Shown here: positions 1 to 6,127 of the stretch, piece by piece
Numbering within the stretch: position 1 is the stretch's first letter
Layout of the letters: each line of letters opens with the position of its first letter
From: a virus
Taxonomy: Duplodnaviria; Heunggongvirae; Uroviricota; Caudoviricetes
Length of the DNA stretch: 6,127 nucleotides
Direction: 5' to 3' (one strand)
IMG/VR virus record: IMGVR_UViG_2690316099_000002
Span: 1 to 6,127 of that record
Made by a program: the position numbers and the translations under genes
Notes under the pieces: model-generated
Database searches by the model: none
Told to the model about the DNA's origin: nothing
What the model saw: only the letters and a program-made list of their open reading frames with translations

Positions 1-69
1 GTGCAGAAATCCCTCCGGTTAAGGATTAAATTTTATTTACAGTGCTGGATTTAATTATTCAGATTTGGA

Positions 70-345
70 TTATGCTTTCTCTTCACTCCGGTATACAAGA
101 ATTACAACGTCACCTCTGCTAATCACGCGAGCTGGCTCTCCTGGTTCTATACTGTCAATATCGAAGGTCTCAAAAAACGCATTCATTGCCTTCTGCCGCT
201 GCGTCTGTTTACAGCGTTTATTCCATTCTTTCAGTAACATCAGTGACAGCCACCGCCATGAGCAGAACATGATGTAGCACCAACCAAGAAGCGCCAGCCC
301 CGTATTGAGGGCCGTACCAATCGTCATTGTTGCGTCGATATTCAC
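70..345 (-). CDS. Small hypothetical membrane protein (91 aa from GTG at 345; alternative ATG start at 327)
   Basis: ORF with a hydrophobic stretch (TIGTALNTGLALLGWCYIMFCSWRWLSLMLL), consistent with one or two transmembrane helices. GTG at 343-345 overlaps the upstream stop (GTGA) and is preceded by AGGAGGAGG with a short spacer. No family recognised. Confidence 0.55.
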   Translation of the reverse strand: MNIDATMTIGTALNTGLALLGWCYIMFCSWRWLSLMLLKEWNKRCKQTQRQKAMNAFFETFDIDSIEPGEPARVISRGDVVILVYRSEEKA

Positions 346-638
346 TGTACCTCCTCCTGGAAAATAACTGCATGCCCCAGTTTCTCCGCCAGCGCCAGTT
401 CTGCCTTAGCGCCTGCTGACCGCTGCCAGCCTTTCAGCATGTAAATCGCATCCACACAACGAATCATTGCCATGCAAATATCCATGTAGTGCGGCTGTGT
501 CAGCCCGTCCGGAAGTACTGCCGGGTTTAAGACGGTATGCCCTTCCCGTTTCAGTTCCTCTTCTGCCTTGTGAAACGCCTCACGGTTGAAATTTTCATAC
601 CCCGTCATTGGACCGGCGATATAAACCCTCACCCTCAC
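342..638 (-). CDS. DUF4406-like prophage protein (nucleoside 2-deoxyribosyltransferase-like fold), 98 aa
   Basis: The N-terminus MRVRVYIAGPMTGYENFNREAF...GHTVLNP matches the conserved YIAGPMTG...N...F...G..V.NP signature I recall for DUF4406. GTG start at 636-638 overlaps the upstream stop (GTGA); AGGAGG lies about 7 nt upstream. Confidence 0.7.
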   Translation of the reverse strand: MRVRVYIAGPMTGYENFNREAFHKAEEELKREGHTVLNPAVLPDGLTQPHYMDICMAMIRCVDAIYMLKGWQRSAGAKAELALAEKLGHAVIFQEEVQ

Positions 639-1051
639 GCCATCACCTCCTGAAAATTACCCTGATAAAACGCCAGCACACGCTGCATAACCTTGCTTTT
701 CCGGCACTCGAGACAGATTATGTTCTGACGCCTGTCGTAGTGGCGTATCTCTCCATCTGGTAATGAATAAATCAGGCCAGGGTCGCTCTTCTTTTTCGCT
801 GCACCTTTAGACATCTCTTTATGGGCTTTTATCCAGTCTTTACGTGCCTGCTCAGAAGGGAATATTCCATGCCCTGAACCATATACAACACCACTGTCTA
901 CCAGTTCTTTCGCCAGAACTTCAATCAGATGTCTCGTCGCCCCTGTTTCATTTTCCAGTTGTTTACGCGTTTTCCTACCATCTCTGCGTACCAGTTCCAC
1001 AATACGCGCCTTTACTTCTTCCCGTTGTTCGGGAGTAAAAACTTTTACCAT
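635..1051 (-). CDS. Hypothetical phage protein, 138 aa, possibly DNA-binding
   Basis: ATG at 1049-1051 preceded by AGGAGGA at good spacing, 14 bp downstream of the preceding gene's stop. Basic, charged N-terminal region; no confident family match from sequence alone. Confidence 0.7.
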   Translation of the reverse strand: MVKVFTPEQREEVKARIVELVRRDGRKTRKQLENETGATRHLIEVLAKELVDSGVVYGSGHGIFPSEQARKDWIKAHKEMSKGAAKKKSDPGLIYSLPDGEIRHYDRRQNIICLECRKSKVMQRVLAFYQGNFQEVMA

Positions 1052-1065
1052 AAGTCCTCCTGAAA

Positions 1066-1569
1066 TTACTTCACAACCCTCAGGTGTCTGACATTCGAAC
1101 GCCAGCTCTCCCAGTTAAAATTCACCCAGCGACCACCGTTCATGACCATGCGGTCCATCACACGCTCGCCAAGAAGCGTACTCATCGCTACGTGGTTCAG
1201 GTTCGTCAGCATTCCGACACTACGCATCGAAGCAGTTCTGCGGTCGACTATCTGGTTCAGTGTGACCTGCTCGTTGCGCGTATCCCGCTGCATTCCGATT
1301 TCATCCAGGACAAGCAGGTCAACATCACACAACCCCTGTAAAAATTTTTCGCCTGAGTTTTTGTTGTCGTAGCTGTTGTGTAACGCCAGCATCACATCAG
1401 CCACCGTTATCACAATCACGCTGCGACCTTTCGCCAGAAGATGATTGCCAATGGCGGCTGCAAGGTGGTTCTTTCCGGTACCCGGCTTACCGCTGAACAC
1501 AAAATTCGTGCACCCTGTCATCAGTTCGTCAGCGATGGATTTTGCCTGGACGTCAAATACAGTTTCCAT
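1066..1569 (-). CDS. N-terminally truncated DnaC-like AAA+ ATPase (about 167 aa from ATG at 1569; the ORF track extends to a TTG at 1587)
   Basis: Roughly 80% identical to residues ~89-248 of the upstream 248-aa DnaC-like protein. Walker A (GKPGTGKNHLAAA) and Walker B (DLLVLDEIG) are intact. Own ATG preceded by GGAGGA; the DnaB-binding N-terminal region is absent. Confidence 0.75.
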   Translation of the reverse strand: METVFDVQAKSIADELMTGCTNFVFSGKPGTGKNHLAAAIGNHLLAKGRSVIVITVADVMLALHNSYDNKNSGEKFLQGLCDVDLLVLDEIGMQRDTRNEQVTLNQIVDRRTASMRSVGMLTNLNHVAMSTLLGERVMDRMVMNGGRWVNFNWESWRSNVRHLRVVK

Positions 1570-2073
1570 TAAAACATCCTCCAACAAAAATTACTTCACA
1601 ACTCCCGGAAAGCTGACATTTGAACGCCAGCTATCCCAGTTAAACGTCACCCACCGACAACCGTTCATGGTCATGCGGTCCATAATCCTCTCACCAAGAA
1701 GCGTGCTCATTGCGGCATGATTCAGGTTTGTTAACATCCCGACACTGCACAGTGATGCTGTCCGGCGATCAATTATCTGGTGCAATACCACCTGCTCGTT
1801 TTTCGTCTCCCGCTGAATGCCTATTTCATCCAGGACCAGCAAATCAACCCCGCAAAGCTCCTGTAAAAATTTTTCACCGGATTTGCCGTTGTCGTAGCTG
1901 TCATGCAACACGCTCATGACATCAGACTCGGTGACGATAATCACGCTGCGCCCCTTCGCCATCAGCCGGTTACCCATCGCCGCTGCAAGGTGATTTTTCC
2001 CGGTGCCGGTTTTACCGCTGAACACAAAATTCGTGCACCCTGTCATCAGTTCGTCAGCGATGGATTTTGCCTG
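1066..2073. repeat. Tandem direct duplication (period about 525 bp, roughly 80% identity) spanning the AAA+ portions of the two DnaC-like genes
   Basis: 1066..1548 aligns with 1591..2073 at the protein level and, by eye, at the nucleotide level. Both copies end ...AATTACTTCACAAC. Identity is estimated from the translations, not computed. Confidence 0.7.
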
Positions 2074-2337
2074 GTTCAGCGCATGTTTTTGCCCGTCGTT
2101 CTGCACCTGATAATTCGCAAACGAGCATTTGCTGTGCAGAGGCTGGATGCCCGAACGATTCAGGATTTTTTCCACCCGCAACTGGCGATTCTGGCGGTTG
2201 ATCTCCTCGCTACGTTTTCGCCCTTCTGCCAGTTGCCACTCGCGCCACTCATCCACTGTCCGGTACGGCGCGATTACATGCTGCGGGGTCAGCTTACGGA
2301 TACGCTCAAGAACACCACCTGCCGCGATATTTTTCAT
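1591..2337 (-). CDS. DnaC-like replicative helicase loader (prophage YdaV-type), 248 aa
   Basis: Full-length similarity to DnaC as I recall it: N-terminal region with NRSGIQPLH...CSFANYQV, Walker A GKTGTGKNHLAAA, Walker B DLLVLDEIG, C-terminal LGERIMDRM. ATG at 2335-2337, 6 nt downstream of the preceding stop. Confidence 0.85.
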   Translation of the reverse strand: MKNIAAGGVLERIRKLTPQHVIAPYRTVDEWREWQLAEGRKRSEEINRQNRQLRVEKILNRSGIQPLHSKCSFANYQVQNDGQKHALNQAKSIADELMTGCTNFVFSGKTGTGKNHLAAAMGNRLMAKGRSVIIVTESDVMSVLHDSYDNGKSGEKFLQELCGVDLLVLDEIGIQRETKNEQVVLHQIIDRRTASLCSVGMLTNLNHAAMSTLLGERIMDRMTMNGCRWVTFNWDSWRSNVSFPGVVK

Positions 2338-2343
2338 GGCCCG

Positions 2344-3309
2344 TTACCCCCTGAACCCCGGCGGAATTTCGGTATCCGGCTCAGAAATATGATTCACACA
2401 ACGCTGTACAGACGAACGCCCCAGGCGGATAACCAGTTCATCCCATTTTCCGCGAAGCTTTGACGGACTCATGATATTTTTTACCCAGAATGGATCCCGC
2501 TGCGCCCGACCAAACATTTCACAAATTTGTCTGTGAGTTCTGCCATCCAGCATCCGCATTGTGCGCACGTCGTTGGCCCATGCGGTCCAGTTGGGTTCTT
2601 TCGGTCGCGAAATCTCGCCATCATCGCTGGCGGCCTGCTCGTAAAGACTCACGATTCGCCCCCAGATCCACTGCGCACACGCCAAATCTTCCTGGTTGCC
2701 CCACTGGCGTTTTTTTGCACTGAACACAACCGCGTCAGGGTGTCGGGTTAAAAAATCCTGTTCAACCGTCTGCGGGTCCGGTTGCGAAGCTTCCGGACGA
2801 GAAGTGTTTTTATTCTCTGTAGTAATCTCTGTTGTATTCTCTGTAAGATCATCAGGCCATTTTGACCCGATGACATTGAGTCGTTTTGAACCAATGGAAC
2901 GTGCCATTTTGGCCTCTTCCATCGTGTCATTCTGACCTGATGGAGCAGCGCATTTTGACCTGATGGATTCGCTCACTTTGCCACCATCTAAAAGCTCGCT
3001 CTCGTAATTAATCGTGTAAAAATTAGTCATATCACGCTTTGATTTATTGAGCTTTTCGCAACGCAAAAGCCCCAGCGTTTTCAGACTGGCAAATGCGCGT
3101 TTTAACGTTGACTCTGACCAGAACGGGAACTGCTCCAGCCATTGTTCTGTTGTGTTATAAATCCAGCGAACACCATCACATTCCATGCCGGAACCGGTAT
3201 CTCTCAACCAGTAGTGCAGTTGTTGCAAAACAATGGCTTCGTTTAAGCCAATTTTCATTGCCAGCTGCGTGTTTATAACCAGTGGGCGTTCAGCAAAAAG
3301 AAGGCTCAT
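2344..3309 (-). CDS. Phage replication initiation protein (replisome-organiser / O-like, N-terminal HTH), about 321 aa
   Basis: Long ORF immediately upstream of the DnaC-like gene, the usual position of the initiator. N-terminal HTH-like segment (LAMKIGLNEAIVLQQLHYWL). The track's start at 3363 is a TTG; the first ATG is at 3307-3309 (used here), overlapping the upstream gene by 20 bp. Start is uncertain; another ATG lies at 3256-3258. Confidence 0.7.
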   Translation of the reverse strand: MSLLFAERPLVINTQLAMKIGLNEAIVLQQLHYWLRDTGSGMECDGVRWIYNTTEQWLEQFPFWSESTLKRAFASLKTLGLLRCEKLNKSKRDMTNFYTINYESELLDGGKVSESIRSKCAAPSGQNDTMEEAKMARSIGSKRLNVIGSKWPDDLTENTTEITTENKNTSRPEASQPDPQTVEQDFLTRHPDAVVFSAKKRQWGNQEDLACAQWIWGRIVSLYEQAASDDGEISRPKEPNWTAWANDVRTMRMLDGRTHRQICEMFGRAQRDPFWVKNIMSPSKLRGKWDELVIRLGRSSVQRCVNHISEPDTEIPPGFRG

Positions 3310-3811
3310 AATTCCATCCAGCTTTTTGTTGGTATTGCTGTCGATACGCAAGTTTGAAAGCAATGGCTTTTTCTATAAGTTCGTCAGTTTCACGATCCAC
3401 TACAGCTGGATCTGCAAAAAGCAGCCCGGACTCCACCACATCGCCATATTCTTTGTTTAACCCGGCGATCATGTACGTGATGCTTTTTCCGTCACTAATT
3501 TCACGATACAACCTGAAATCATTAATCCGGATAGCCTCCATAATTGCCGGAATCAGCGCCGTGAATTTTTTCCGCTTATCCCTGGTGTCGATAGCTTTCC
3601 AGCGTTCGAATATCTTCACCCGGTTAACGCCCAGCGCCCGTTGATCAACCTCGCCATCATTAAACGTGACGCGTTGAACATCGATGTTCGGGCGTTCTTT
3701 CAGAGCCCAGAATGCTTCCGTGATTAATATCGTCGCCTGCTCCTGTGTCATTCCTGGTCGGCACACCCAGGCATCCAGAGCCTCACAAACCTGTTCAGGG
3801 GTGATTTTCAT
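3290..3811 (-). CDS. YdaT-like protein (putative toxin YdaT family), 173 aa
   Basis: Sits directly downstream of the Cro-like gene, as ydaT follows ydaS in Rac-type prophages. ATG at 3809-3811 overlaps the DicC-like 3' end by 17 bp. Family assignment is from position and general sequence character, not a verified alignment. Confidence 0.65.
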   Translation of the reverse strand: MKITPEQVCEALDAWVCRPGMTQEQATILITEAFWALKERPNIDVQRVTFNDGEVDQRALGVNRVKIFERWKAIDTRDKRKKFTALIPAIMEAIRINDFRLYREISDGKSITYMIAGLNKEYGDVVESGLLFADPAVVDRETDELIEKAIAFKLAYRQQYQQKAGWNYEPSFC

Positions 3812-4022
3812 TGTTCAACCGCCCCGCCCGCTTCGTCTTACGATATTCGTCATAAACTTTGGGATCATACTGAAGCTCCCCGCCAGATGCCTCTTGCAGG
3901 CGCATCGCGCGACCTTCAGGAACCAGTTCCCCCCATTGAGAAACAGCAGATGGATCAACACCAGCAGCTTTCGCTACTTTGGCTTTCGTCCCATAAAAAT
4001 TAATTACGTCTGATTTAAACAT
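3795..4022 (-). CDS. dicC: DicC-like Cro-type regulator, about 75 aa
   Basis: The C-terminal two-thirds (GELVPEGRAMRLQEASGGELQYDPKVYDEYRKTKRAGRLNNENH) closely match my recollection of E. coli DicC. ATG at 4020-4022 preceded by GGAGGGG. The track's longer start at 4049 is a TTG lying inside the operator-like palindrome. Confidence 0.8.
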   Translation of the reverse strand: MFKSDVINFYGTKAKVAKAAGVDPSAVSQWGELVPEGRAMRLQEASGGELQYDPKVYDEYRKTKRAGRLNNENHP

Positions 4023-4034
4023 CACCCCTCCAAA

Positions 4035-4050
4035 ATTGAGTTTTCTCAAT
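4035..4050. promoter_or_regulatory. Operator-like inverted repeat ATTGAG-N4-CTCAAT in the dicC/dicA divergent promoter region
   Basis: Perfect 6-bp inverted half-sites with a TTTT spacer. A near-identical copy lies at 4568..4583. CTCAAG/TCAAGG half-site-like direct repeats follow at 4058..4080. Confidence 0.55.
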
Positions 4051-4099
4051 AGTAATCACTCAAGGAATCTCAAGTCAAGGGTTATTAAGATATCTAAAT

Positions 4100-4507
4100 A
4101 TGAACGAGAAAACTTTAGGTCAACGAATTAGAGAAAGACGCAAACAGGTTGGTTTAAGTCAAAACGATTTAAGCAAAGCCGCTGGCGTATCTGGCTCATC
4201 AATTTCACTATGGGAAAGCGACCATACAGCCCCGCGTGGGCAAAATTTGCATCGCCTGGCTGAGGTATTGCAATGTTCACCAACTTGGATACTGTTTGGT
4301 GACGAGGATAAAACACCAGATCCACCAGTTGCACTCAACAGCGCCTTAGACTTATCGGAAGATGAGTTGGAGATGTTGCGATTGTATCGCGCACTTCCAA
4401 AATCAGAGCAGCAAGCACAAATCAGCGAACTCCGTGCCCGCGTTGAGAATTTTAATCGCCTATTCACCGAGCTACTAGAAGCTCGCAAACGTAACAAACA
4501 TCAGTAA
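4100..4507 (+). CDS. dicA: DicA-like XRE-family HTH repressor (CI-type), 135 aa
   Basis: N-terminal HTH (GQRIRERRKQVGLSQNDLSKAAGVSGSSISLWE) and the motif LQCSPTWILFGDEDK, plus a C-terminal segment SEQ...RARVENFNRLF.ELL.A, all close to my recollection of Qin DicA, which has the same length. No clear Shine-Dalgarno upstream of the ATG. Confidence 0.9.
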   Translation: MNEKTLGQRIRERRKQVGLSQNDLSKAAGVSGSSISLWESDHTAPRGQNLHRLAEVLQCSPTWILFGDEDKTPDPPVALNSALDLSEDELEMLRLYRALPKSEQQAQISELRARVENFNRLFTELLEARKRNKHQ

Positions 4508-4524
4508 TCCCCTTCACAAATTTT

Positions 4525-4558
4525 AAAGCCTTACATTTCAATGTATTGGCTTTATTTT
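4525..4558 (+). terminator. Putative intrinsic terminator downstream of dicA
   Basis: AAAGCC (4525-4530) pairs with GGCTTT (4548-4553), with additional inner pairing ACAT/ATGT, followed by ATTTTG. The stem is AT-rich, so it is probably a weak terminator. Confidence 0.4.
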
Positions 4559-4567
4559 GCATTAAAT

Positions 4568-4620
4568 ATTGAGTTTTCTCATTAAAAGCACTTGACCAAC
4601 AGTCATGAGAAAACTAAATT
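4568..4620 (+). promoter_or_regulatory. Second operator-like repeat (ATTGAGttttCTCATT, 4568..4583) with a candidate sigma70 promoter for the leftward operon
   Basis: The repeat matches the 4035..4050 site at 15 of 16 positions. It is followed by a -35-like TTGACC (4592-4597), a 17-bp spacer and a -10-like TAAATT (4615-4620). Confidence 0.45.
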
Positions 4621-4696
4621 ACCACCCATCAAGACACCGCACGGTGTTCTCAGCAAACAGTTCCGCTACCCGGCGTTAAGGGGAAATGAGGTCAAC

Positions 4697-4849
4697 ATGG
4701 ATACTATCGATCTTGGTAACAACGAATCTCTGGTGTACGGCGTGTTTCCCAACCAGGACGGCACATTCACCGCGATGACGTATACCAAAAGCAAAACGTT
4801 TAAAACCGAAGCTGGCGCGCATCGCTGGTTAGCAAGAAACTCTGACTGA
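4697..4849 (+). CDS. ydfA: YdfA-like small protein (DUF1391), 50 aa
   Basis: ATG at 4697 preceded by GAGG. Size and position (first gene after dicA, same strand) match ydfA of Qin. The longer track ORF from 4592 has no RBS and includes the promoter region. Confidence 0.65.
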   Translation: MDTIDLGNNESLVYGVFPNQDGTFTAMTYTKSKTFKTEAGAHRWLARNSD

Positions 4850-4860
4850 TGAGGTTGACG

Positions 4861-5499
4861 ATGGAATTTAAAGATTTACCTACTTCAATCCAGGAGATTG
4901 CAGCACACACACTTCGTCATCGTCTGAACGAACTTGCATTGGAATCGGTAACGAAAAAAGACACTGATAATATGGCTCGTAATGTGCGCGATGCGTTTAC
5001 CGGATTGTATTTCTGTGCGTCTGTAAATAAACACGACTCAGATAGTGTGGCAAATAAAATTGCAGAAACGACAGCGCAAAACATCAATACGAAACCAACG
5101 GAAGAAGAAATTGATCAGTTTGCTCATGATGCTGGTTTAAAAAACAAGAAAGAAAAATCGCCATATGCGGGGAACATGTTTGTTTATGACAATCTCATCA
5201 GAATTCGTGGCGAAATTCCGGCGGAATACCTGGCAAGAGTCCATCAGGCATTGCTTAAAAATCTGGAAACAGAATTATTTGATGGCAACACTAACGGTTT
5301 CTTCATGGTATCAGGCCTTGAGAAAGACTGGGATGCAGAAAAACGCTGGAATGTTGCCACATGGTTATTCAGTAACAGAGCCGCTGCCCTGGAAGCTTCG
5401 GCATGTATTTGCGGCCTGTTCTTAACAGACCACAAATATAATCTGGATGTGTACAGTTATATTTACGCTGAACACGGTCCGCTCTGGATTGACTGGTAA
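4861..5499 (+). CDS. Hypothetical protein, 212 aa, in an AT-rich insert (candidate moron)
   Basis: ATG at 4861 preceded by GAGG with about 7 nt spacing. The track's start at 4849 overlaps the ydfA stop (ATGA) and is an alternative. Visibly lower GC than the replication module. No recognisable family. Confidence 0.7.
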   Translation: MEFKDLPTSIQEIAAHTLRHRLNELALESVTKKDTDNMARNVRDAFTGLYFCASVNKHDSDSVANKIAETTAQNINTKPTEEEIDQFAHDAGLKNKKEKSPYAGNMFVYDNLIRIRGEIPAEYLARVHQALLKNLETELFDGNTNGFFMVSGLEKDWDAEKRWNVATWLFSNRAAALEASACICGLFLTDHKYNLDVYSYIYAEHGPLWIDW

Positions 5500-5709
5500 T
5501 TATAAGGAAACACCAGCAGGGCCGAGGCGACCAACTGAACGATTAAAATCAATAATGCCATTATAAAGGACATTATTTAATTTATCGTCGAATGCTGATT
5601 CTGTGAGCCTCAACTCTGAATGAGTTTTTAATAACCCTGATTGCCTGAGTTGATTTACCAGGCATTCAATCTGTTTTTCAATAAGCGGATTTCTTTTTTT
5701 GTTTGGCAT
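5500..5709 (-). CDS. Hypothetical small basic protein, 69 aa, convergent with the 212-aa ORF
   Basis: ATG at 5707-5709 preceded by GGAGGA at 4-5 nt. Very AT-rich. Its stop is immediately adjacent to the stop of the plus-strand 212-aa ORF (5497-5499 / 5500-5502). Basic N-terminus (MPNKKRNPLIEKQ) suggests possible nucleic-acid binding. Confidence 0.55.
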   Translation of the reverse strand: MPNKKRNPLIEKQIECLVNQLRQSGLLKTHSELRLTESAFDDKLNNVLYNGIIDFNRSVGRLGPAGVSL

Positions 5710-6044
5710 TTTATCCTCCATTGAGGTTCTGGGTTAAAAATGGAGACCAACACGCTGCCACGTGTGGTCGTGCGCCGGACACGGATAAGAATCCGGTACT
5801 GACAGTTTACTGAAAGGATATATCCCTGAAAAGCCAGGGCATAACGCGAAAGCGCACGGCGAAGTTCGTCTCACTGTACGGTGTCGTTAAATTTAATTCG
5901 ACCGTGCGCTTCCGGTTGTGGCACTCCGCGAAATGGCGCGGCGGTAAGTATGGCGGGGTTATTCCTCCCCCATTGAGACACCGGGTTGCCAGGTTGACCA
6001 TACGCTTAAGTGACAACCCCGCTGCAACGCCCTCTGTTATCAAT

Positions 6045-6097
6045 TTTCTGGTGACGTTTGGTGGTATCAGTTTTACTCCGTGACTGCTCTGCTGCCC
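6045..6097 (+). ncRNA. dicF: DicF-like antisense sRNA (ftsZ-targeting cell-division inhibitor RNA)
   Basis: TTTCTGGTGACGTTTGGTGGTATCAGTTTTACTCCGTGACTGCTCTGCTGCCC matches the roughly 53-nt E. coli DicF sequence as I recall it, apart from two C-to-T changes in the terminal stem. It is followed by TTTTT. Confidence 0.7.
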
Positions 6098-6102
6098 TTT
6101 TT
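6058..6102 (+). terminator. Intrinsic terminator forming the DicF 3' end
   Basis: GGTGGTA (6060-6066) can pair with TGCTGCC (6090-6096) using G-U wobbles, with inner CAG/CTG pairing, followed by a T5 run at 6098-6102. Confidence 0.55.
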
Positions 6103-6127
6103 AAAGTGAATTTTGTGATGCGGTGAA

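Follow-up and report, generated by a model that had tools for sequence, protein, structure and literature searches.

DicF is among the oldest known bacterial small RNAs (sRNAs). Its precursor has been treated for 35 years as "a long untranslated region", which is the only description of the leader given in the K-12 DicF papers, and these mention no conserved fold. In Escherichia coli K-12, DicF is derived from a transcript started at dicBp (Ragunathan et al. 2023, PMC10448788, confirming Faubladier et al. 1990). A 190-nt species is gone in the absence of RNase III and accumulates in the absence of RNase E, the 53-nt DicF requires RNase E, and primer extension yielded no internal promoter (PMC10448788). 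The published K-12 blots were obtained with DicF probes only. Here we analyzed the corresponding locus in a 6,127-nt stretch of DNA from a virus of the Caudoviricetes (IMG/VR record IMGVR_UViG_2690316099_000002, positions 1 to 6,127), referred to as the window. Positions 5722-6044, upstream of dicF, had been described in an initial annotation as non-coding sequence with a 10-bp long-range inverted repeat. Between an RNase III helix and DicF we identified, on the plus strand, a structured domain of approximately 115 nt (5915-6028), referred to as the core. No description of its fold was found in the literature, where a mention in older DicF or P1 papers is possible, and the core is apparently an undescribed conserved structured RNA domain. 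Apparently, it is this conserved domain between the RNase III site and DicF that is new, while processing through RNase III and RNase E is already known.

The closest relative of the locus is the leader of the K-12 prophage Qin. Window positions 5767-6127 align with the Qin spacer between ydfC and dicF at about 91% identity (90.7% to K-12 strains by megablast) and are identical to it over 5998-6060. In strain MG1655, the spacer extends over 340 nt from the end of ydfC at 1649041 to the start of dicF at 1649382, with nothing annotated. The Qin leader, the source of the 190-nt pre-DicF, shares the RNase III helix, the core, an identical linker and DicF with the window. In contrast to Qin, the window has a 216-aa open reading frame (ORF) and an antisense 69-aa ORF in place of ydfB/ydfC, the apex of the helix is unrelated, the core has a 1-nt deletion and two mismatches, and the DicF terminator has two G.U wobbles. 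The differences in gene content between the two prophages lie upstream of 5767. The stretch had initially been taken as the place where ydfB/ydfC would be expected. However, the same non-coding stretch, of 340 nt, also follows ydfC in K-12. The idea that it might be a remnant of deleted genes is not supported by the alignment either, which shows homology to the K-12 spacer from approximately 5767 and the replacement of ydfB/ydfC further upstream.

A second relative is the 'dicF-like region' of the bacteriophages P1 and P7 (GenBank AF234172/AF234173). Its core is the same (80-82% identity; 97-101 bits with the covariance model), an intrinsic terminator comes next, and the region, like the core of the window, heads a repressor-controlled early operon. 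Unlike the window, this region has another closing helix, another terminator, no DicF seed and no RNase III helix in the RNA, and it is followed by tRNA genes, tciABC and ban. The kilR leader of the K-12 prophage Rac, which gives rise to the sRNA KilS (PMC8175672), occupies the same early-left slot between a DUF1391 gene and a division inhibitor. The RNase III-type helix of this leader is homologous to that of the window and the post-terminator sequence is the same, but the core is precisely missing. KilS is a 98-nt Hfq-associated sRNA whose 5' end has been ascribed to a possible promoter of its own on the basis of global transcription start site (TSS) data (PMC8175672), and kilR is reached by read-through only when NusG is lowered (PMC5793797). 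The sRNAs SroC, CpxQ and SdhX, which are intra-operonic or derived from 3'-UTRs, resemble DicF in that their 3' end is made by an intrinsic terminator within an operon or at its end and their 5' end by RNase E. Unlike DicF, they have no conserved structured domain or RNase III step directly 5' of the RNase E site, according to a review (PMC9438474).

The put sites of phage HK022 (putL and putR), which are factor-independent processive antiterminators, may serve as a comparison for how the core could work, and for that only. Both are structured nascent RNAs located between an early promoter and the first terminators in lambdoid phages without N. However, put comprises about 70 nt with two stem-loops and occurs twice, after PL and after PR, whereas the core comprises about 115 nt with four helices and occurs in one copy per genome. 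The core model had no match in HK022 24000-33500 (within the 12 kb examined), and HK022 was not among the BLAST matches. An assignment of the core to HK022-type put was rejected, as there was neither sequence or model similarity nor a second copy.

Fold, conservation and distribution of the core

The fold was derived from an alignment of homologues, and the final count was made on a covariance-model-fitted alignment of 75 distinct sequences. It consists of the helices P0 (5915-5921/6022-6028), P1 (5926-5930/5937-5941), P2 (5942-5945/5980-5983), a variable hairpin P2b (5955-5958/5968-5971) and P3 (5984-5991/6011-6018). A pseudoknot between UAUGG (5949-5953) and CCAUA (5998-6002) in the P3 loop is tentative. 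P1, P2, P2b and P3 were independently recovered by RNAalifold, and the single-sequence minimum free energy (MFE) fold of 5909-6030 recovered the same helices together with P0. In the fitted alignment, 95.1% of the cells were paired and changes on both sides occurred in 13 pairs (50 cells). None of 500 column shuffles matched the core on any of five measures, and a control in which the partners were slid by 1-3 columns gave 31-59% paired cells. The unfitted MAFFT alignment resulted in 92.8% paired cells and 11 pairs with double changes; its shuffles matched in 0/500 cases on four of the five measures and in 5/500 on the remaining one, further pair types. The covariance model (R1) matched the window copy at 5907-6037 with 142 bits, compared to 156 bits for the consensus.

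The best-supported helix is P3, in which six of eight pairs show compensatory changes, as exemplified by GGGUAACCA/UGGUUACCC in Izhakiella. In P2, a U-A pair is changed to C-G in four P7-like copies. P2b varies in sequence and length with the hairpin retained, and insertions and deletions are restricted to one hairpin loop of the core. Along the 3' strand of P0 all changes are wobble-neutral (U-G/U-A 36:29, G-U/G-C 42:22), indicating that the plus-strand RNA is the selected molecule. Covarying helices and near-invariant loops, as expected of a conserved and structured sensor-like domain of a riboswitch or attenuator, were thus both observed. In one P7-like copy on an IMG/VR contig (L169), a 23-nt G-rich insertion, CGGGGGGGGGGGCGACTCCCTGA, is located between the pseudoknot strand and P2b, which may be an assembly or homopolymer artefact.

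Searches of Rfam 15 yielded no family for the core (whole window at E <= 1; 216-nt and 261-nt sub-stretches of the window and P1 at E <= 10). Apart from DicF, matches were at chance level only, including one of 11 bits to gut-2, and the core matched no riboswitch class and no known ligand in Rfam. Several resemblances to known elements were considered and rejected. A likeness to 5S rRNA loop E/helix IV or to the sarcin-ricin loop (GGUAAGUAUGG...CCCC...UUGAGGAC) was seen by eye and had no Rfam score in its support. The boxA-like ACGCUUAAG in the P3 loop reads GCGCCUGAG in other lineages. Masking of the DicF seed by the core was dismissed as well, the pairing with the 3' arm of the terminator being seen in this lineage at MFE level only and absent in P1.

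When the locus was compared to phage records by BLAST, the most widely conserved part was approximately 5915-6036, which is neither DicF nor the repeat. Identity of the core was 86% in the phages Ayreon, 2H10, cdtI and Stx2c, 84% in a phage labelled Actinobacillus, 80% in Salmonella phage F1055 and 80-82% in P1/P7, and the flanks were unrelated between phage groups. Pattern scans of species genomes and viral contigs yielded 83 distinct cores after dereplication, originating from Escherichia, Shigella, Citrobacter, Trabulsiella, Erwinia, Izhakiella, Serratia and P1-like elements. About one third of the pattern matches in species genomes were chance matches in unrelated metagenome-assembled genomes, which were removed by the covariance model. 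The core was present in 4309 of 5426 complete E. coli genomes (79%) at 8934 places, with up to 8 per genome, and no annotated feature was found under it among the E. coli matches listed. A further 511 plasmid records, mostly P1-like, contained the core. Lambdoid phage and P1 loci have one core per phage genome, and a model search of the full Ayreon genome revealed no second core near pR. The core is absent from the K-12 prophages CPS-53 and Rac. The 186-nt ECS009 RNA of CPS-53 (PMC3175480), which had been considered as a possible core, was rejected because CPS-53 lacks it.

Some of the homologous loci have additional features. In the phage pPE4, labelled Actinobacillus (L009, 2600-2720), the part that extends from the core's 3' end up to the terminator (CCCCGCCACAACAACCCATGTTGATTACCTTTTGGCG...) occurs again in tandem after the first terminator, resulting in two sRNA modules. 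As the pPE4 locus shares 84% identity with E. coli prophage sequence and has dicA, ydaT, kil and exoVIII genes, the host label may deserve a check. Upstream of the core in F1055 (L007, about 2400-2450), Erwinia tracheiphila (L042) and Izhakiella australiensis (L044), a sequence resembling a tRNA T-arm occurs (GGTTCGATTCC / GGGTTCAATTCC). A tRNA-like element was rejected for the three loci with GGTTCGATTCC, where ARAGORN called no tRNA. In the long terminator region of the same three loci, AGGAG...ATG could start a tiny ORF.

The inverted repeat and processing of the DicF precursor

The repeat that had attracted attention initially is formed by AAGCGCACGG (5850-5859) and CCGTGCGCTT (5902-5911), perfect reverse complements 42 nt apart. 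Repeat, loop length and the intervening palindrome were all found as described, the palindrome being the AU-rich TTAAATTTAA at 5887-5896. A repeat search lengthened the pair to 13 nt at 92% (5847-5859/5902-5914). Perfect repeats of at least 10 bp with a loop of at most 60 nt occurred in 1.6% of 1000 dinucleotide shuffles of 5722-6044. The 10-bp repeat is the center of an imperfect helix of about 22 bp with 22 predicted pairs (5840-5863/5897-5920). The helix region (5838-5922) folds with -34.4 kcal/mol compared to -24.3 +/- 2.6 kcal/mol in shuffles (z = -3.82, 0/200), and the ten central pairs had a probability of 0.8-1.0 in all contexts folded, up to 346 nt. The folding check, which had been set beforehand, thus favored the repeat over local alternatives.

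On the plus strand, the helix is preceded by the 5' part of the conserved DicF-precursor leader (5767-5839), which aligns with the K-12 spacer 3' of ydfC and forms small local hairpins in the MFE fold. Many E. coli genomes begin matching at window position 5769 or 5829 (query positions 270 or 330). The 5' arm of the helix (5840-5863) holds the left repeat, a variable apical part (5864-5896) includes TTAAATTTAA, and the 3' arm (5897-5920) holds the right repeat. The last positions of this arm, 5915-5920, double as the 5' strand of P0. Pairing was seen in 96.7% of the helix cells across 41 distinct Qin-type copies, most changes being between C and U opposite G. The apical 30 nt or so are unrelated in sequence among sub-lineages although the arms are kept. 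Leaders of the Ayreon/Citrobacter type have a helix of equal size and position but of other sequence, in which CAACGAUGAG(G/A)GCAU... is paired with ...GUGCUCUCAGCGUUG. In lambdoid leaders, GUUGUGG serves both as the 5' strand of P0 and as the base of the RNase III helix, where it pairs with an upstream CAUAAC or GCAACG. Due to this shared strand, only one of P0 and the helix base can form at a time, and of the two it is the upstream pairing that is transcribed first.

Counting 190 nt back from the annotated 3' end of K-12 DicF leads to 1649245, which corresponds to window position 5909 (CCGTGCG|CTTCC) inside the 3' arm of the repeat. The 5' end of the 190-nt species is thereby located within a double-stranded segment of about two turns. 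By this count, RNase III is predicted to cut the window RNA between G5908 and C5909, give or take a few nt, and the partner cut, staggered by 2 nt, would be at approximately 5854|5855 in the 5' arm. Downstream of the core, an AU-rich single-stranded linker (6029-6044, plus strand) is identical to that of K-12. By homology, RNase E would cut at about 6044|6045, a position taken from the K-12 dicF annotation. DicF itself extends on the plus strand over 6045-6097 according to the K-12 annotation and over 6046-6097 according to Rfam (RF00039; 66.9 bits versus a gathering score of 48, E = 1.5e-13, model positions 1-52 of 52). Its intrinsic terminator consists of a hairpin (6060-6070/6085-6097) and a U-run (6098-6102), also on the plus strand. 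Compared to K-12, two G-C pairs of the terminator stem are G.U wobbles (GGUGG.../...GCUGCC versus GGCGG.../...GCCGCC), which could weaken termination.

Judged from the sequence, the RNase III/RNase E part of the locus is known biology, present here as an allele of the K-12 leader, and the inverted repeat is ordinary and already explained. The suggestion of an RNase III/RNase E processing structure in the initial annotation is supported by the homology to K-12, by the K-12 enzyme data and by the position of the 190-nt 5' end in the 3' arm of the repeat. Its other suggestion, a separate RNA element, turned out to apply as well, in a form not foreseen there, namely the core just 3' of the repeat.

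In Rac, the 5' end of KilS is located within the 3' arm of the homologous helix (L186, 9406-9600, minus strand). Just upstream of it lies TGTTAAATT, an extended -10-like sequence homologous to the AU-rich palindrome of the window. Three loci from Shigella flexneri and IMG/VR contigs (L026, L053 and L098) are without the RNase III helix and P0, with the remaining core intact. These copies appear, from their sequence, to have arisen by deletion between two CGCGAAA direct repeats (5845-5851 and 5927-5933, inside direct repeat D1).

Position of the core in early operons

At the loci examined, the core was always located on the transcribed strand of a repressor-controlled early operon. It follows the repressor gene by a few hundred nt in Ayreon, cdtI and 2H10. 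In P1, about 45 nt separate the core from the upstream -10 element of Pban, a C1-controlled promoter, so that the predicted transcript start is about 35 nt upstream of the core. A hairpin followed by a T-run was found 32-114 nt past the core in 84 of 87 distinct downstream flanks. Linker and terminator are lineage-specific: the terminator stems differ, and 10-60 nt of unrelated sequence separate the core from the terminator. No conserved overlap of the core with the terminator, as in an expression platform, was seen, and the only conserved alternative pairing is that with the upstream RNase III helix. At least eight types of seed plus terminator follow the same core, only some of which are DicF-like. 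Such variety suggests that these phage sRNAs form a family in which interchangeable seeds are placed behind a single conserved platform.

No gene for an N-type antiterminator was recognizable in the operons examined. Lambdoid phages without N, including relatives of 2H10, are an acknowledged open case, for which a put-like RNA has been suggested without evidence (PMC12315714). In a P1vir transcriptome, tciA and ban were over-induced in an hfq mutant while most phage genes were under-induced (bioRxiv 10.64898/2025.12.28.696737). Both genes are located downstream of the core-terminator unit of P1; however, tciB/C are affected in the opposite direction, so that a link to the leader is uncertain.

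According to a comparison of ORFs and protein families, the window stems from a lambdoid prophage and covers its immunity and early-left region. Here, a Cro-like gene (3795-4049, minus strand) is followed by genes for a DicA-like repressor (4100-4507, plus strand) and a YdfA-like DUF1391 protein (4697-4849). The 216-aa ORF (4849-5499, plus strand), which is in the slot held by ydfB/ydfC in Qin, belongs to phrog_2151 (function unassigned) and has no Pfam match; its N-terminal 55-75 residues or so match four further PHROG families. The antisense 69-aa ORF (5500-5709, minus strand; phrog_4274, function unassigned, no Pfam match) is annotated by RefSeq in the equivalent region of E. coli strain 504838. 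The adjacent junction segment (5710-5766) is not homologous to the K-12 leader. It contains, for the antisense ORF, a Shine-Dalgarno sequence and a promoter-like site, the latter identified on the minus strand by a promoter consensus scan (TTAACC-18-TAAAAT, 5737..5708). The left-end 45-57 nt of the stretch under study are therefore part of the antisense unit. As this ORF lies antisense inside a rightward early operon, transcription from the dicA side must cross it before reaching the DicF leader. The final 628 bases of the window are 100% identical to strain 504838, where dicB, a DUF1482 gene, an exonuclease gene, xis and int follow past the window end. Elsewhere in the window, two adjacent minus-strand ORFs (1066-1587, 173 aa; 1591-2337, 248 aa) have long near-identical stretches in common (AKSIADELMTGCTNFVFSGK.GTGKNHLAAA...LLVLDEIG...TNLNH.AMSTLLGER). 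On this similarity, the pair looks like a partial tandem duplication of a gene for a DnaC-like helicase loader.

Possible roles of the core

We consider it likely that 5767-6044 constitutes an untranslated leader of the DicF precursor which is composed of the RNase III helix, the folded core and the RNase E linker, and in which the core has a role. Rightward transcription would start from a repressor-controlled early promoter beside the dicA-like gene. RNase III would cut the helix at about 5908|5909 and presumably at about 5854|5855, thus excising a hairpin of about 54 nt, separating the downstream RNA from the upstream mRNA and leaving the 5'-monophosphate tail CUUCCG. The 5' strand of P0, GUUGUGG, would at first be held in the base of the RNase III helix. 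Since the two conserved pairings are mutually exclusive, P0 would close only after cleavage or strand displacement. Closed P0 would set the monophosphate tail (5909-5914) beside the RNase E site (6029-6044). RNase E would then cut the 16-nt linker at about 6044|6045 to yield DicF (6045-6097), the 3' end of which would be made by its own terminator. Transcription from the DicA-controlled promoter, the steps at the RNase III helix and at the RNase E linker and termination at the DicF hairpin have been shown in K-12 and are carried to the window by homology. The nascent core, finally, might act in cis on the elongating polymerase or on the terminator just past it and might so set read-through across the sRNA terminator and the long untranslated stretch into dicB/kil, the recombination genes and int.

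Several points weigh against this reading. The homologues are close relatives of one another (effective sequence number of the model, 1.67), and such relatedness can outdo column shuffles even where no structure exists. A single covarying pair (U-A 68, U-G 4, C-G 3) supports the pseudoknot, P1 has no double changes, and the single-sequence folding energy of the core is ordinary (z = +0.45). The window copy deviates from the fold by two C.A mismatches, one in P3 and one at the P2b base, and by a 1-nt deletion within the internal loop of P2. The RNase III position in the window combines a gel size of 190 nt with homology, and the published numbering of the cut (813/814) is not tied to coordinates. 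With regard to read-through in cis, there is no second core past pR, unlike the situation of put in HK022, and conservation of the RNase III helix suggests that it is important for the RNA to be released. Furthermore, Rac of K-12 keeps the helix and KilS and has lost the core, indicating that the core is not needed for the production of an sRNA at such loci.

Readings in which the stretch acts as coding sequence or as DNA were judged against the same alignments. A degraded or unrecognized coding sequence, be it a ydfB/ydfC remnant or a small protein such as that of the minus-strand 78-aa frame (5807-6043), is barely credible. Besides this frame, a second GTG/TTG frame, of 59 aa on the plus strand (5904-6083), extends over the core, and hypothetical proteins are annotated there on the minus strand in the Ayreon, 2H10, cdtI and pPE4 records. 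However, K-12 has ydfB and ydfC intact and the spacer in addition, substitutions keep the RNA pairing (including G.U), and neither frame is conserved as such. The spacing of two invariant anchors is 55-61 nt and falls into all mod-3 classes (69/35/20 sequences), variability is without a 3-nt periodicity (0.115/0.097/0.105), and in about half of 124 homologues neither strand has an ORF that spans the core, the ORF lengths scattering between 36 and 78 aa. Based on these features, the annotated proteins are probably artefacts. The longest plus-strand reading starting with ATG in the stretch has 20 codons (5741-5803), in agreement with the earlier statement that no credible plus-strand ORF exists. 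We likewise regard it as very improbable that the region has a promoter of its own, either GTGACA-19-TGTTAT (6010-6040), proposed initially as a weak promoter dedicated to DicF, or TAAATT (5888-5893) with TTCGTC 17 nt upstream. Of the former proposal the hexamers GTGACA (6010-6015) and TGTTAT (6035-6040) and the 19-nt spacer do exist, the 5' end of DicF lies 5 nt past TGTTAT, and in Rac the homologous TGTTAAATT precedes the 5' end of KilS, where TSS data were taken to reflect an independent promoter. The promoter role itself was not upheld, as a consensus scan identified no plus-strand site in 5400-6127: the candidates reach at most 7/12 or have the wrong base at position 2 of the -10 element, TGTTAT lacking the A there. 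GTGACA is the 3' strand of P3 and is conserved as a helix strand with compensatory changes, and in K-12, which is identical here, the 53-nt form needs RNase E, the 190-nt form needs RNase III and primer extension showed no extra start. A similarly low probability is assigned to recent horizontal spread of a DNA block without RNA function, such as a recombination 'linker' or an ops-like GGCGGTA site. The core does lie at mosaic junctions with unrelated flanks, deletion variants between CGCGAAA direct repeats occur, and GGCGGTAAGTATG resembles what we take to be the ops consensus, GGCGGTAGnnTG. However, compensatory or wobble-neutral changes in five helices on one strand only, as well as the confinement of insertions and deletions to one hairpin loop, are not accounted for by a DNA block, and 80-84% identity between P1-like and lambdoid copies speaks against recent transfer. 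An RfaH ops element was rejected because the critical T covaries as part of a base pair: it is C in P7-like copies, with its partner changed from A to G to match (U-A 70, C-G 4).

For the role of the core as an RNA, we tentatively favor cis control of terminator read-through in phages without an N-type antiterminator, which is a guess. Arguments for such a role are that the core in every lineage lies past the early promoter and ahead of the first terminator, even in P1, which requires no processing, and that these phages are without N. The core might then represent a new class of cis-acting phage RNA that renders E. coli RNA polymerase resistant to the intrinsic terminator just past it and to Rho along the extended untranslated stretch, either constitutively or in dependence on a signal, the RNase III cut licensing the closure of P0. 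It would possibly be the missing antitermination device of N-less lambdoids (Qin/DicF, Ayreon/2H10/Stx2c/cdtI types) and of the P1 ban operon, a proposal we make with the same reserve. About as likely as a role in cis, and thus equally uncertain, is that the core is a scaffold for sRNA biogenesis or the body of a stable RNA (a core plus terminator of about 175-190 nt, or a fragment of about 136 nt after release of DicF) which binds a conserved host protein in trans. Accumulation of the 190-nt species is seen in vivo, the RNase III helix is kept in two lineages of differing sequence, and P0 puts 5909-5914 next to 6029-6044. Promoter, core and terminator of P1 look like a self-contained gene of about 175 nt, and a constant core combined with at least eight varying downstream modules points to a conserved partner other than the mRNA targets. 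However, Rac yields the Hfq-associated KilS from a similar leader without the core, P1 keeps the core though no release from a long mRNA is required, and near-invariant loops are unnecessary for a scaffold. The deletion in Rac argues against a pure processing scaffold and is compatible with read-through, at the level of one cryptic prophage only. The core could also be the sensor of a riboswitch-like attenuator which responds to a ligand, an ion or temperature and chooses between termination and read-through, but this we consider unlikely. Its anatomy is aptamer-like (a multi-helix junction, joining regions and loops of high conservation, a peripheral hairpin that varies and possibly a pseudoknot), an intrinsic terminator follows in 84 of 87 flanks, and GUUGUGG has two conserved alternative partners. 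In contrast, no conserved overlap between aptamer and platform is visible across the lineage-specific sequence before the terminator and its differing stems, no riboswitch class in Rfam is matched, and the gene context offers no candidate ligand.

If the core is a functional RNA, few unannotated structured RNAs of E. coli would be as widespread, and a second element may have been taken out or carried along in experiments that deleted or cloned dicF with its flanks. If it acts in cis, the core would be a candidate for the route by which N-less lambdoid phages and the ban operon of P1 get past early terminators, and it would bear on how the toxic division inhibitors dicB and kil are silenced and switched on.

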